Of a stretch of DNA of 64,000 nucleotides, positions 3,720 to 63,366 are shown in pieces; the stretch's first letter is position 1, and every line of letters starts with the position of its first letter. The stretch is from Eledone cirrhosa. Taxonomy: Eukaryota. The stretch is taken from assembly GCA_964016885.1 (NCBI GenBank), contig OZ024754.1, positions 38,998,001 to 39,062,000 of the forward strand, in the 5' to 3' direction. The notes below the pieces were generated by a model. That model worked only from the letters and a program-made list of their open reading frames with translations. It was not told where the DNA came from and searched no databases. A program made the translations under genes and the position numbers.

Positions 3720-4219
3720 TTAACTCTTAACATCTTTATTACTTCAATCTGCCCGATAGTAAAGATATTATAAACGTTTGATGTGACAAGCTGCAGTATT
3801 AACTCTTAACATCCTGTAATGATTTAGCAGACAATATCTACAAATAGGTTTATCACTTCAAACGTTTATAGTATCTTTACTATTGAACAGATTGTTGTGA
3901 ACATTTACACTATTAACTCTTAACATTCTGTTATGATTTAGCCAAAAATATCTGCAAACAGGTTTATTTTTTTTAAATGTTTATAGAATCTTTACTACTG
4001 AACATTTGCAGTATTAACTCTTAACACCTTGTAATTATTAAGCCAAAAATATCTACAAACAGATTTATTAATTCAAACACTACTAGTGGACAGATTGTTT
4101 GTGGAAATTTGTAGCAAACTAAACTAAAGACTAATGTGATTCAGTCATAGTGTTGATTTGTACTTATCAAGAATGTCTTGTTAATACCGTTTCATGTGGA
4201 TCAGAACATTAAGAGTTAA
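3720..4219 (+). mobile_element. TTAA-bounded MITE family B with its left ~110 bp tandemly reiterated
   Basis: TTAACTCTTAACATC recurs at ~3720, 3799, 3913 and 4015, with a single right end ...ACATTAAGAGTTAA at ~4219. Confidence 0.65.
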
Positions 4220-11176: not shown

Positions 11177-11219
11177 GCGCGTGTGAGGACATATATATAC
11201 ATATTGATATATAGATATG

Positions 11220-11259
<40 letters not shown>

Positions 11260-11344
11260 CACATACACATACATGCGCACAAATACATACATATATATGT
11301 ATACACTCACCAACATTTAATTAATTATATTATATATATATATT

Positions 11345-11680
11345 CTCTGAACATTAATCAGTATACACTGAGGATGAAAAACTCAGAGCTGTATGGGAGC
11401 CTCCCAAAGGTCAGCTCAAAAGTGACACAGAGGAGACTGAGGTTAGCTGGACATGCTCACCGACATCCAGAGTTGACATTGCACTCAGTACTCCTTTGGG
11501 AGCCCCTACATGGACACACTGGAAGAGGAAGACCAAGGTTAACGTATGTTGATGCCTTAAGGACAGACACTGGTCTGTTGGAGACGCAGGACATGGCAGC
11601 GATAATGAGGGACAGAGACCGCTGGAGAGAACTCGTCCATGGATCTCGGGAATTTTACCCGCCTTAGATAGATAGATATA
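11345..11680 (+). mobile_element. 5'-truncated RTE-clade LINE of a second family (ORF2 C-terminus), with a (TAGA)n tail
   Basis: Translation NSELYGSLPKVSSKVTQRRLRLAGHAHRH...LLWEPLHGHTGRGRPRLTYVDALRTDTG...MRDRDRWRELV shows the typical RTE C-terminal RRLRxxGH / GRP / DRxxW motifs. Confidence 0.85.
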
Positions 11681-11967: not shown

Positions 11968-12409
11968 TTAACTTTTAACAGCCTGTAATGAAAATGTCTA
12001 AAAACGGGTTTGTTAATTCAAATGTTTATAGCATCTTTACTAATGGACAGATCATTGTGAAAATTTGTAATATTAGTTCTTAATATCTTGTAATGATTTA
12101 GTAGAAAATATCTTTTTAAAATGTTGTTAATTCAAATGTTTATAGCATCTTTACTAGTGGACAGATCATTGTGAAAATTTGTAATATTAGCTCTTAACAT
12201 CCTGTAATGATTTAGTAGAAAATATCTTCAAACAATTTTGTTAATTCAAATATTTATGGTGTCCTTACTAGTGGACAGATCATTGTGAAAATTTGCAGTA
12301 AACTAAAATAAAAACTATAATTTTCCAATGTGATGCCCTAGCACTGTTTTATACTTTCAAAGACTATTTTGCTAATGTGGTTTCAAGTGGTATAGGATGT
12401 GAAGAGTTA
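11968..12409 (+). mobile_element. TTAA-bounded MITE family B with three tandem left-end units
   Basis: Left-end units at ~11968, 12074 and 12187. The right end TATAGGATGTGAAGAGTTAA shares its TTAA with a family C start. Confidence 0.65.
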
Positions 12410-12751
12410 ACCCTTTTTGTTACCATTTTTCAAATCAATAACAACACTTTTTTTCACTGCTTCATTGGTTTCAGTCAGAGTTTGACCATGCTGGGGTACC
12501 ACCTTGATTCAGGCAATCATATTGGCCCCAATATTTATTTTCCGAGTCTGGTACTTATTTTAGTGATTCCTTTTTGTCAAACTTCTAAGTTATGGAACAA
12601 AAAGGAAATGTAAACACACACACATCTATATATCTATCTCTCTCTCTCTCTACATATATATATATATATATATATAAAGTATTTCCGTAGGAAGGGAGAG
12701 TGCTCTATGTATGCTACAGGTTTTTATTATCATATCTTACGTCCATATTAA

Positions 12752-12826
12752 ATTTCATTCTGATGAGCGATTTCAGGCGTCTCTGTTGAGCTCGCCTGTC
12801 TTCGTGAAACCTTTGGTAAATGGAAT
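12752..12826 (+). ncRNA. Type I hammerhead ribozyme motif (complete core)
   Basis: Stem I ATTTCATT/AATGGAAT; CTGATGA at 12760-12766; stem II G-CGA..CAGGCG/CGCCTG..TCG-T; GAAA at 12806-12809; stem III ACC-TTT-GGT; cleavage triplet GTA at 12816-12818. It lies within a ~175-bp island flanked by (TA)n. Confidence 0.8.
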
Positions 12827-12846
12827 AATTGTCTTATGTTGTTTAT

Positions 12847-12877
<31 letters not shown>

Positions 12878-12942
12878 CGAGAGAGAGAGAGAGAGAGACA
12901 GGACTAGAACTGTTTCATTTGAGGGAAATCATCAGGGCACAG

Positions 12943-12994
12943 GGCTTTCCTGATGATTTACTCCGAATGAAACAGTTCTAGTCCTGTAGAAGCC
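12943..12994 (+). ncRNA. Type I hammerhead ribozyme motif (weak stem II) with an inverted partial copy at 12898-12936
   Basis: GGCTTTC-CTGATGA-TTTACTCCGAAT-GAA-ACAG-TTCTAGTC-CTGT-A-GAAGCC. The upstream 39 bp is its reverse complement, with 4 mismatches. Confidence 0.6.
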
Positions 12995-13224
12995 ATTTCT
13001 ATATTAAGTATTGATACTTTGCTATGTATTGAGTACCTTACTGTGGTTTCCCCCAATTGACAAACATATACATACATATATACATACATACATATATACA
13101 CACACACACAACAGGCAAAACTCCAAAGTAACAAAACTCACTATTTAGTCTTAATAAAATGAATATCAGAATTCTACTTCAGTATTGGGTACTCTTTTCT
13201 CTCGGCTGTCAACCACATACATAT

Positions 13225-36978: not shown

Positions 36979-37214
36979 ACAATCTCTTCCTGCTATTAAA
37001 ACTAATTTTTATATAGAAATAACAGAGTAGTTTGTTTTAGGAGGCAGTTTATTGCTCATCGGTTTACTAAGTTAACACATCTTTTAGAATAGTAAACAGG
37101 TAACTTAGTCATCTGAGAATGACAGGTGCAGCCTTGGAAGAGATGATATTAAAATGCCAGCTAAAATGCAAAATGGAAGCTGCATGCTGAATAAATGGAA
37201 CCAACTATGTGCAT

Positions 37215-42935
<5,721 letters not shown>

Positions 42936-47487: not shown

Positions 47488-50400
47488 AGCTAATCATGAA
47501 ATCAGATGAAAGAAACAATGTTTCCATTGGTCTTTCCATTGCTGATACTATCTGTCAGTCACAACTCCTGGCAGAAGAAAGGAGCTAATCATGAGATCAG
47601 ATCAAAGAAACAATGTTTCCATTGGTCTTTCCATTGCTGATACTATCTGTCAGTCACAACTCCTGGCAGAAGAAAGGAGCTAATCATGAGATCAGATCAA
47701 AGAAACAATGTTTCCATTGGTCTTTCCATTGCTGATACTATCTGTCAGTCACAACTCCTGGCAGAAGAAAGGAGCTAATCATCAGATCAGATCAAAGAAA
47801 CAATGTTTCCATTGGTCTTTCCATTGCTGATACTATCTGTCAGTCACAACTCCTGGCAGAAGAAAGGAGCTAATCATGAGATCAGATCAAAGAAACAATG
47901 TTTCCATTGGTCTTTCCATTGCTGATACTATCTGTCAGTCACAACTCCTGGCAGAAGAAAGGAGCTAATCATCAGATCAGATCAAAGAAACAATGTTTCC
48001 ATTGGTCTTTCTATTACTGATACTATCTGTCAGTCACAACTCCTGGCAGAAGAAAGGAGCTAATCATGAGATCAGATCAAAGAAACAATGTTTCCATTGG
48101 TCTTTCTATTACTGATACTATCTGTCAGTCACAACTCCTGGCAGAAGAAAGGAGCTAATCATGAGATCAGATCAAAGAAACAATGTTTCCATTGGTCTTT
48201 CCATTGCTGATACTATCTGTCAGTCACAACTCCTGGCAGAAGAAAGGAGCTAATCATGAGATCAGATCAAAGAAACAATGTTTCCATTGGTCTTTCTATT
48301 ACTGATACTATCTGTCAGTCACAACTCCTGGCAGAAGAAAGGAGCTAATCATGAGATCAGATCAAAGAAACAATGTTTCCATTGGTCTTTCTATTACTGA
48401 TACTATCTGTCAGTCACAACTCCTGGCAGAAGAAAGGAGCTAATCATGAGATCAGATCAAAGAAACAATGTTTCCATTGGTCTTTCCATTGCTGATACTA
48501 TCTATCAGTCACAACTCCTGGCAGAAGAAAGGAGCTAATCATCAGATCAGATCAAAGAAACAATGTTTCCATTGGTCTTTCCATTGCTGATACTATCTGT
48601 CAGTCACAACTCCTGGCAGAAGAAAGGAGCTAATCATCAGATCAGATCAAAGAAACAATGTTTCCATTTGTCTTTCCATTGCTGATACTATCTGTCAGTC
48701 ACAACTCCTGGCAGAAGAAAGGAGCTAATCATGAGATCAGATCAAAGAAACAATGTTTCCATTGGTCTTTCCATTGCTGATACTATCTGTCAGTCACAAC
48801 TCCTGGCAGAAGAAAGGAGCTAATCATGAGATCAGATCAAAGAAACAATGTTTCCATTGGTCTTTCCATTGCTGATACTATCTGTCAGTCACAACTCCTG
48901 GCAGAAGAAAGGAGCTAATCATGAGATCAGATCAAAGAAACAATGTTTCCATTGGTCTTTCCATTGCTGATACTATCTGTCAGTCACAACTCCTGGCAGA
49001 AGAAAGGAGCTAATCATGAGATCAGATCAAAGAAACAATGTTTCCATTGGTCTTTCCATTGCTGATACTATCTGTCAGTCACAACTCCTGGCAGAAGAAA
49101 GGAGCTAATCATGAGATCAGATCAAAGAAACAATGTTTCCATTGGTCTTTCCATTGCTGATACTATCTGTCAGTCACAACTCCTGGCAGAAGAAAGGAGC
49201 TAATCATGAGATCAGATCAAAGAAACAATGTTTCCATTGGTCTTTCCATTGCTGATACTATCTGTCAGTCACAACTCCTGGCAGAAGAAAGGAGCTAATC
49301 ATCAGATCAGATCAAAGAAACAATGTTTCCATTTGTCTTTCCATTGCTGATACTATCTGTCAGTCACAACTCCTGGCAGAAGAAAGGAGCTAATCATGAG
49401 ATCAGATCAAAGAAACAATGTTTCCATTGGTCTTTCCATTGCTGATACTATCTGTCAGTCACAACTCCTGGCAGAAGAAAGGAGCTAATCATGAGATCAG
49501 ATCAAAGAAACAATGTTTCCATTGGTCTTTCCATTGCTGATACTATCTGTCAGTCACAACTCCTGGCAGAAGAAAGGAGCTAATCATGAGATCAGATCAA
49601 AGAAACAATGTTTCCATTGGTCTTTCCATTGCTGATACTATCTGTCAGTCACAACTCCTGGCAGAAGAAAGGAGCTAATCATGAGATCAGATCAAAGAAA
49701 CAATGTTTCCATTGGTCTTTCCATTGCTGATACTATCTGTCAGTCACAACTCCTGGCAGAAGAAAGGAGCTAATCATGAGATCAGATCAAAGAAACAATG
49801 TTTCCATTGGTCTTTCCATTGCTGATACTATCTGTCAGTCACAACTCCTGGCAGAAGAAAGGAGCTAATCATGAGATCAGATCAAAGAAACAATGTTTCC
49901 ATTGGTCTTTCCATTGCTGATACTATCTGTCAGTCACAACTCCTGGCAGAAGAAAGGAGCTAATCATGAGATCAGATCAAAGAAACAATGTTTCCATTGG
50001 TCTTTCTATTACTGATACTATCTGTCAGTCACAACTCCTGGCAGAAGAAAGGAGCTAATCATGAGATCAGATGAAAGAAACAATGTTTCCATTGGTCTTT
50101 CCATTGCTGATACTATCTGTCAGTCACAACTCCTGGCAGAAGAAAGGAGCTAATCATGAGATCAGATCAAAGAAACAATGTTTCCATTGGTCTTTCCATT
50201 GCTGATACTATCTGTCAGTCACAACTCCTGGCAGAAGAAAGGAGCTGATCATGAGATCAGATCAAAGAAACAATGTTTCCATTGGTCTTTCCATTGCTGA
50301 TACTATCTGTCAGTCACAACTCCTGGCAGAAGAAAGGAGCTAATCATGAGATCAGATCAAAGAAACAATGTTTCCATTGGTCTTTCCATTGCTGATACTA

Positions 50401-50990
50401 TCTGTCAGTCACAACTCCTGGCAGAAGAAAGGAGCTAATCATGAGATCAGATCAAAGAAACAATGTTTCCATTGGTCTTTCCATTGCTGATACTATCTGT
50501 CAGTCACAACTCCTGGCAGAAGAAAGGAGCTAATCATGAGATCAGATCAAAGAAACAATGTTTCCATTGGTCTTTCCATTGCTGATACTATCTGTCAGTC
50601 ACAACTCCTGGCAGAAGAAAGGAGCTAATCATGAGATCAGATCAAAGAAACAATGTTTCCATTGGTCTTTCTATTACTGATACTATCTGTCAGTCACAAC
50701 TCCTGGCAGAAGAAAGGAGCTAATCATGAGATCAGATGAAAGAAACAATGTTTCCATTGGTCTTTCCATTGCTGATACTATCTGTCAGTCACAACTCCTG
50801 GCAGAAGAAAGGAGCTAATCATGAGATCAGATCAAAGAAACAATGTTTCCATTGGTCTTTCCATTGCTGATACTATCTGTCAGTCACAACTCCTGGCAGA
50901 AGAAAGGAGCTGATCATCAGATCAGACCAAGGAAACAATGTTTCCATTATTTTTTCCATTGCTGATACTGTCAGTTGCAAGTCCTGGTGG
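47488..50990 (-). repeat. 95-bp satellite, ~37 highly homogeneous copies, derived from SINE tail A
   Basis: Period of 95 (47521 to 47616). The unit is homologous to the reverse complement of 7725-7812 and to 56335-56415. Confidence 0.95.
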
Positions 50991-61662: not shown

Positions 61663-62196
61663 TTTCATAGCACCGACACTGGGGATGCATTGATTGTCTT
61701 CTTCCAATGCTGGTATGAGCTGGACAGGTCTGTCGTGGTTTGAGACGTGTGGTTGTATCTGATAGAGGGCTTCGCATGTGGTTTAATGATAGGGGCCCTA
61801 ACCCTATCATGAAAAACTATGTGAAATGAACCATCTTTTTCAAGAACACAATGTGGCATCTAGTCCACGAATCAAACCCATGACCTTATGATCCTGAGTC
61901 CAACATCCTAACTACTAAGTTACACATATTGGTGGTAAATATATGATATCAGTTCCTTCACAAGAATGTATGGTAAATATTAATCACTCAGTTTCATTCT
62001 TTGGCTGTGAAACGGTTTTATTTCTAACAGAATCTAGTCTCAATTTGTCGACTAAAATGCAATGTCTTCAATATGTTTCAACAGAACATGAGGTGTCGAA
62101 TTCCAGTAATAGGAGATTAACGAAGTAATTAAGGAATCCAGTTACCTGTAACGATACACCAATTATTTCAAAGCCTCAATCTAAAGTGACAACTGC

Positions 62197-63366
62197 AGAA
62201 AACTAGGCGTTGACGAATGGCTTGTGAGGGCTATACAAGCCATGTATAAAGAAACAGTCAGCAAGGTTAGAATTAACAACGAATATAGTGAAGAGTTTAG
62301 CGTAAAAGTCGGCGTCCATCAGGGCTCTGTTCTCAGTCCACTACTATTTATTATTGCCCTTCAGGCCATAACAGAGGAGTTCAAGACAGGCTGCCCATGG
62401 GAACTCCTATACGCAGACGACCTGACACTCATAGCGGAATCAATGGCCGAGCTAGAGAAGAAATTCCAAACATGGAAGCACGGCCTAGAGTCAAAAGGAC
62501 TTAAAATTAACCTGGCTAAGACCAAAGTACTAGTTTGTAGGAAAGAAAACAAGGCGGCGGTCCCTTCTGGGAAATGGTCGTGCTCGGTGTGTAGGAAAGG
62601 CGTAGGTAGAAACTCCATTTTATGTCCTAAATGCAAAGTATGGGTGCATAAAAGATGTAGTGGGATCACAGGTAGGCTAACTAAGAACATAGATTTTACA
62701 TGTGGCCGGTGCTCTGGTGCAATAAGTAGCAGCAAGTGCCCACAAACTACTAGCTCTTTCAATTGCGCAGAGGGTTCTATAGAAATAGTGGACAGCTTCC
62801 GTTACCTGGGCGATAAAATCAGCAGTGGGGGAGGGTGCTCTGAAAGTACTGTAGCTAGAGTCAGAACTGGTTGGAAAAAGTTCAGAGAGCTTATACCACT
62901 ATTAGCTGCTAAAGGGTTCTCACTAAAAATGAAAGGCAGGTTGTACGATGCCTGCATACGAACAGCAATGCTGCATGGCAGTGAGACCTGGGCATTGTGT
63001 GCAGAGGATATACGCAGACTAGAGAGGAACGAAGCTTGCATGCTCCGCTGGATGTGTAACAGTAATATACGTGAACGGCAAAGCATAAACGAACTAAGGA
63101 ATAAATTAGAGATAAGAGGGATCAGATGTTGTTTACTCGAGAGAAGGCTACGTTGGTATGGACACGTGATGCGCATGAAAGTCGATAGCTGTATAACAAA
63201 GTGCAGGGCAATAAAGATAGACGGTAGTCACGGAATAGGCAGACCTAGAAAAACCTGGGACGAGCTGATAAACTCCGACATCACACACTTACACCTCTCC
63301 AAGACAATGTCACTGGACCGAGACCTTTGGCGGTACTCAGTAACAGAGAAGACCCGCCTTACCTAA
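62197..63366 (+). CDS. Partial LINE ORF2: reverse transcriptase C-terminal half, PHD-like Cys-rich insert and RTE C-terminal domain
   Basis: RT motifs GVHQGSVLSPLLF, LLYADD, GLKINLAKTK and FRYLG; C-terminal RRLRWYGH and GRPRKTW; no stops over ~390 codons. It lacks the endonuclease and the RT N-terminus. Confidence 0.9.
   Translation, partial: RKLGVDEWLVRAIQAMYKETVSKVRINNEYSEEFSVKVGVHQGSVLSPLLFIIALQAITEEFKTGCPWELLYADDLTLIAESMAELEKKFQTWKHGLESKGLKINLAKTKVLVCRKENKAAVPSGKWSCSVCRKGVGRNSILCPKCKVWVHKRCSGITGRLTKNIDFTCGRCSGAISSSKCPQTTSSFNCAEGSIEIVDSFRYLGDKISSGGGCSESTVARVRTGWKKFRELIPLLAAKGFSLKMKGRLYDACIRTAMLHGSETWALCAEDIRRLERNEACMLRWMCNSNIRERQSINELRNKLEIRGIRCCLLERRLRWYGHVMRMKVDSCITKCRAIKIDGSHGIGRPRKTWDELINSDITHLHLSKTMSLDRDLWRYSVTEKTRLT

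Follow-up and report, generated by a model that had tools for sequence, protein, structure and literature searches.

A probable pLTR piece of a Hydra-type Penelope-like element with a type I hammerhead motif in the genome of Eledone cirrhosa

The short non-coding island at positions 12677-12850 of the window, i.e., of the whole 64,000-nt stretch of DNA analysed here, is very probably an ordinary truncated pLTR piece of a Hydra-type Penelope-like element (PLE), to judge from the comparison of its sequence with other copies in the genome. The family to which it belongs, here called family A, appears to be a new pLTR family of such an element, a placement based on motifs and on a by-eye comparison with Hydra-1_Obim. 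No prior description of it was found in the literature covered, in which only the paper on the clade (PMC8557442) was relevant, subscription papers and Repbase/Dfam being outside the scope of the search. The locus itself is of little weight, being one among very many decaying end-pieces; it is the family that supplies full pLTR-ORF-pLTR Hydra-type elements, a young sister family that is intact and near-identical among its copies, two sharp insertion ends and a natural swap of stem II of the hammerhead.

The island, its two arms and the hammerhead motif

An earlier note on this DNA, made from the letters of the sequence, had described the island as ~175 bp of non-coding DNA bounded by (TA)n. 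The size (174 bp) and the flanks stand. The island is not a single element strand: it is made up of two oppositely oriented pieces, 43 and 131 nt in length (Table 1), and each of its outer ends is one of the two fixed end points of the family. That of the forward arm is end A (...TTATTACA, directly followed by TA), and that of the inverted tail arm is end B. The tail arm has an internal deletion of 11 nt and carries the 3' part of the first of the twin hairpin motifs taken up below. The forward arm bears only three private changes with respect to family A, as expected for a neutral copy, and the copy in the window is in all likelihood a passenger in neutral decay. Short tandem repeats of 114 bp and of related period lie just upstream of the island (12010-12295) and at 3797-4004.

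Table 1. Coordinates of the features discussed (positions in the window unless a locus is named)
Feature	Position	Strand	Basis
Left flank, (TA)n target tract	12652..12676	.	sequence
Inverted, shortened pLTR tail, distal part	12677..12719	-	alignment to the tail of the full-length copy L120
5'-truncated pLTR with hammerhead	12720..12850	+	copy comparison
Hammerhead stem I, 5' strand	12752..12759	+	descriptor scan
Hammerhead core CUGAUGA	12760..12766	+	sequence and descriptor scan
Stem II (G·U-closed 4 bp, 3x3 internal loop, 6 bp, terminal hairpin)	12767..12805	+	
GAAA, stem III and GUA	12806..12818	+	descriptor scan
Hammerhead stem I, 3' strand	12819..12826	+	descriptor scan
Right flank, (TA)n then (GA)n, to the neighbouring family C insertion	12850..12897	.	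sequence
Twin motif AGCUC...GAGCACUCU	L120 619-809; L101 6672-6868		

The plus strand of the forward arm holds a genuine type I hammerhead motif, found by descriptor scan, with CUGANGA, GAAA and UH in the type I order and with three helices. The core that had been claimed is present, with GAAA at 12806-12809 and GUA at 12816-12818 (the cut being predicted after 12818), as are the 8-bp stem I, which includes one U·G and whose outermost (eighth) pair is formed in only 17 of 67 family A copies, and the 3-bp stem III (A-C-C/G-G-U with a UUU loop). The extended stem II is likewise confirmed: its base, GCGA (12767-12770) with UCGU (12802-12805), is followed by a 3x3 internal loop and then by an outer helix of CAGGCG (12774-12779) with CGCCUG (12793-12798). 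The epithet "canonical" fits the core and fails at the base of stem II, where pair 10.1-11.1 is G·U in the window copy rather than G-C. Across the 67 copies this pair is GU in 41, AU in 17, UA in 1 and unpaired in 8, never G-C, whereas the G10.1-C11.1 pair has been called highly conserved in canonical hammerheads (PMC4209133); a literature search for the effects of G10.1/U11.1 found nothing. An Rfam search, both at the gathering score and at E<=10, gave no match of a hammerhead family to the window motif. Chance motifs number 0 in 200 dinucleotide shuffles of the window on both strands, at a setting laxer than the observed motif (stem I>=5, II>=3, III>=3), and the fold z-score is -2.3.

Copies in the genome, the parent element and a young sister family

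In this microsatellite-rich genome of 3.0 Gb, the island as query returns 1222 first-look candidates and a query of 326 bases that spans most of the unit returns 3524. The 32-nt 3' arm after the cut site has at least 623 exact matches, a few of them copies of the sister family B, versus 0 for a reversed control. The comparison of 30 loci gives the order of the unit as pyrimidine-rich head, hammerhead, end A, a tail of ~67 nt and end B; in a set of 30 picked by their order along the chromosome, the copy ends at end A in 16 and includes the tail in 14. Insertion into (TA)n is seen in 26 of 30 loci, where the repeat follows the copy. The 5' ends of copies are variable and, in the 30 copies examined, no pile-up of such ends at the cut site was found: only one breaks within 2 nt of it, and 26 have an ungapped match extending more than 15 nt upstream of it.

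Copies are on average 94% identical to the family A majority, many changes falling at CpG-type positions, and the hammerhead core is kept in 46 of 59 family A instances; by these signs the copies appear to be decaying neutrally. Among copies, 88% of helix cells are paired and 8 pairs show two-sided change, values that 3-8 of 500 shuffles reach and that relatedness alone can give. Variants of family A are also present in two sequencing runs of DNA-like contigs.

The anatomy of family A runs from a pLTR with the hammerhead through end A, tail, end B, 5'UTR, ORF and a long, microsatellite-rich 3'UTR to a second pLTR. A marker segment upstream of the head has 51 candidates in the genome, and in 5 of 11 large regions one and the same RT/EN family is found in sense upstream of this marker, with 2.8-5.5 kb between EN and marker. 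At two of these five loci the hammerhead follows downstream of EN within the stretch read, and at the other three (F, H and M) only the upstream marker, without the hammerhead, does so. An RT/EN ORF of this type was not found in the remaining 6 of the 11 regions; the large regions are crowded with nested PLEs. The junctions themselves are visible at particular loci. At L097, an inverted pLTR is fused to a truncated RT ORF, followed by EN, a microsatellite-rich 3'UTR and a pLTR ending at end A, and the same EN lies in sense upstream of the head and hammerhead at L092/93, L107/108 and L151. At L120, an inverted family A pLTR precedes a pLTR-tail-5'UTR-ATG-ORF series in which the ATG comes ~225 nt after the predicted cut site and the ORF is full-length but interrupted by stops and frameshifts, being 79% identical to the intact ORF of the sister family. 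The motifs RWK and DKT can be read in this copy and the EN motifs in L092, and no intact family A ORF was seen in the regions examined. From the side of the RT, the family A stem II lies within 1.5 kb in 5 of 30 RT loci, in each case inverted to the ORF. Family A further has the hammerhead in sense within the pLTR, and the inverted 5'-truncated copy with a one-sided tail that is a feature of all EN+ PLEs. The suggestion of a solo-pLTR family is thus borne out by the linkage to RT/EN ORFs, the pLTR being that of a Hydra-type PLE.

Other candidates for the parent fell away. The top 20 of 10596 GIY-YIG Pfam candidates belong to another PLE type, without a family A pLTR within 1.5 kb. An RT fragment beside L011, at first read as Naiad, proved to be of another Hydra-type family and was left aside.

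Family B, found by a genome search with the family A-linked RT (its own RT being 78% identical), has intact ORFs of 710 aa in pLTR-ORF-pLTR tandems with a period of ~4.3 kb, as well as in inverted arrangements; one copy lies at L101:6594-8995 (C4 near 259.41 Mb), with others in many places. Identity is 99.3-100% among five full ORFs and 100% between both arms of one insertion, so that the family appears from its sequences to be young and intact. The ORF encodes an RT followed by a C-terminal EN and has all five of the motifs RWK, DKT, CxCX5C, CxxC and CxH, while Pfam names neither RT nor GIY-YIG on the Hydra-type ORF. Its relatives in public data number at least 1428 at E<=1e-20, the best 120 of them at 41-59% identity.

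Stems I and III of the hammerhead, the 3' arm and the tail are preserved in family B, but its stem II hairpin is AU-rich and unrelated to that of family A. That the fold is kept despite this exchange suggests that it matters to the element, and the exchange would be a stronger sign of helix conservation than the covariation within the family. Helix III is near-palindromic in family B (self-duplex -8.2 kcal/mol) and, on account of its weaker self-duplex (-5.1 kcal/mol), less dimer-like in family A. The 3'UTR ranges from 1.9 kb (family B) to several kb; that of family B holds a second, decayed hammerhead (L101:5077-5150), with GUG at the cut site, which is common to many copies.

Insertion, the predicted role of the hammerhead and competing readings

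A mechanism for the insertion can be borrowed from a different PLE clade: in Poseidon_Ac, the tail is bounded by two internal start points of reverse transcription, the target is cut and extended on both strands, and the RNA serves as template mainly in its uncut form (PMC11167929). By analogy, the endonuclease and RT of the element are likely to have cut the (TA)n tract at the window site, and the element RNA would then have been copied from two start points separated by ~67 nt, each serving one end of the break, with priming probably at end A on one target strand and at end B on the other. Both cDNAs would have stopped early, at 43 and 131 nt, and been joined head-to-head, as the in vitro experiments with Poseidon suggest. 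Since copies run across the cut site, the RNA that was copied was probably uncut or re-ligated; as evidence from DNA, this read-through fits an uncut tandem RNA and a circle alike. The predicted role of the hammerhead lies with the parent element, whose tandem transcripts it would process, perhaps assisted by dimerisation or by protein. Both the choice of RT start points by PLEs and the function of PLE hammerheads are open questions (PMC11167929, PMC8557442); for the in vitro PLE assay already published (PMC11167929), family B offers a ready substrate.

A feature that may bear on these questions is a twin motif, AGCUC...GAGCACUCU, which lies a few nt 3' of both end A and end B, the twins being 67 nt apart in family A (L120), in family B and in L142. 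In most tails a 7-bp hairpin is predicted for the first twin; the second is predicted to close a long stem in the family B fold only. It is conceivable, if on balance doubtful, that the motif is an RNA signal positioning the Hydra RT and that the hammerhead is under selection at the level of the element, cutting tandem RNA to unit length that would be re-ligated and copied as circles from both start points. Were this so, the young, intact family B would make the reading directly testable.

The description "retrozyme-like" in the earlier note amounts to a different origin for the copies, namely a non-autonomous metazoan retrozyme, whose ~330-nt hammerhead unit would, after transcription, self-cleavage and circularisation, be put back into the genome by PLE proteins acting in trans. 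Most copies are indeed short and non-coding, yet an RT ORF is physically joined to the unit, which has coding sequence of its own and continues upstream into the 3'UTR and RT ORF and downstream into the 5'UTR and ATG. Reading through the cut site would also be expected from a re-ligated circle; however, the 5' ends vary from copy to copy, and the locus has no head-to-tail array of the 150-450-bp hammerhead units that mark non-LTR retrozymes. Among the first 100 matches listed, close pairs (<1 kb apart) are head-to-head in 15 cases versus direct in 1. A tRNA-like SINE stretch that L025, L026 and L030 have in common just upstream of the pLTR head hints at a secondary source locus; these sequences suggest co-mobilisation from one such locus. 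Retrozymes have, moreover, been argued to derive from PLE pLTRs (bioRxiv 10.64898/2026.07.22.740005). All told, the retrozyme origin appears highly improbable, and for the window copy it is already largely refuted.

It is similarly very unlikely that the window copy works as an active monomeric ribozyme which the host has retained or which acts on the host, e.g., by cutting pre-mRNA. Its core is intact and a rare A>G at 12777 lets G12777 pair with C12795, at a place where an A·C mismatch is found in 15 of 54 copies and G-C in only 1 of 54; but a single compensatory change may arise by chance, template switching or editing—the A·C mismatch making ADAR a possible source—and the three private changes of the forward arm are what neutrality would predict. 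Invertebrate hammerheads with a short helix III can cut as monomers, as a coral retrozyme hammerhead does well (PMC7229834), whereas those metazoan PLE hammerheads that have been assayed to date are poor cutters as monomers (PMC4209133) or depend on protein (PMC11167929). The G·U pair that closes stem II and the short helix III also speak against activity, although an axolotl retrozyme hammerhead with a weak stem II base reaches 22% cleavage in an hour (PMC7229834). For a short construct the active fold is computed to lie within 1 kcal/mol of the minimum, yet its computed share, 0.006 for 12740-12840, drops to 1e-5 when the inverted tail is added, in a model that ignores Mg2+ and tertiary contacts and gives even family B only 0.013. 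On this modelling the window's own inverted tail would compete with the active fold. Detectable cutting by a trimmed construct may be rated about as probable as its failure. No host exon was found among the 89 open frames of the window, a survey that would miss short exons and in which only a LINE-type RT at 62185-63363 was matched. A role of the window hammerhead for the host has low odds, although cutting of host transcripts by intronic copies, if it occurs, would matter for gene expression, given this many hammerheads in the genome.

Known relatives and neighbouring elements

The truncated pLTR of a Hydra-type element finds its closest parallels in the Hydra clade of C-terminal EN+ PLEs (Craig et al. 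2021, PMC8557442), which has the same RWK, DKT, CxCX5C, CxxC and CxH motifs, the (TA)n target and a sense hammerhead near the 3' end; the inverted truncated copy, the one-sided tail and the (TA)n bias are described in the same paper for EN-bearing PLEs. The Hydra hammerheads given there (File S2) have the same build, several of them with non-G-C nucleotides flanking stem II, and helix III reads ACCA-A-UGGU in Hydra-1_oBim, ACCA-C-UGGU in family B and ACC-UUU-GGU in the window. The N-terminus of Hydra-1_Obim is, by eye, colinear with the family B ORF. The hammerhead sequence nevertheless differs between that clade and the present family, marking a different family. Differences also appear in size and layout: the Hydras described are below 3 kb in total, a descriptive rather than diagnostic trait, as against ~4.3 kb for the family B unit and 2.8-5.5 kb from EN to the upstream marker in family A; the tail is ~67 nt here versus the 30-40 bp given for PLEs; and full pLTR-ORF-pLTR tandems are found here, whereas Hydra-1_Obim is listed as "no pLTR" (PMC8557442).

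A further parallel might be struck with Poseidon_Ac of Anolis (Frangieh et al. 2024, PMC11167929), which likewise has a tail between two ends (there internal RT start points), an AT-rich target and a hammerhead upstream of the start points. It belongs to a different clade, and its tail lies inside the ORF instead of in the 5'UTR. The metazoan non-LTR retrozymes (Cervera and de la Pena 2020, PMC7229834) resemble the present copies in their type I hammerhead, small non-coding copies and low GC; the copies here differ from them in not forming head-to-tail arrays and in being linked to their own RT.

Immediately beyond the right flank lies an insertion of a second PLE-type family, family C (12898-13066), with head-to-head minimal type I hammerheads (+12950, -12935) within 12898-12988, a one-sided tail and a long helix III that is palindromic in part. 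It has 2581 candidates in the genome, with an inverted partner in most of the top matches; no parent ORF was found for it. Families A and C are adjacent both in the window and in L180. Among other family C loci, the A/B hammerhead arm was found in none of 19 and the tail in 2 of 19, so that a coupling of the two families was rejected, common targeting of (TA)n being enough to account for their adjacency. Several further hammerhead families, with a perfectly palindromic helix III, occur at L107/L108, L109 and L115-L118; the genome holds many PLE families. Elsewhere in the window lie a LINE-like C-terminal remnant (11215-11664), a (TA)-rich tract of 5.7 kb (37212-42933) and a 95-bp satellite of ~37 copies (47488-50969), while the LINE-type RT fragment mentioned above carries a PHD finger.
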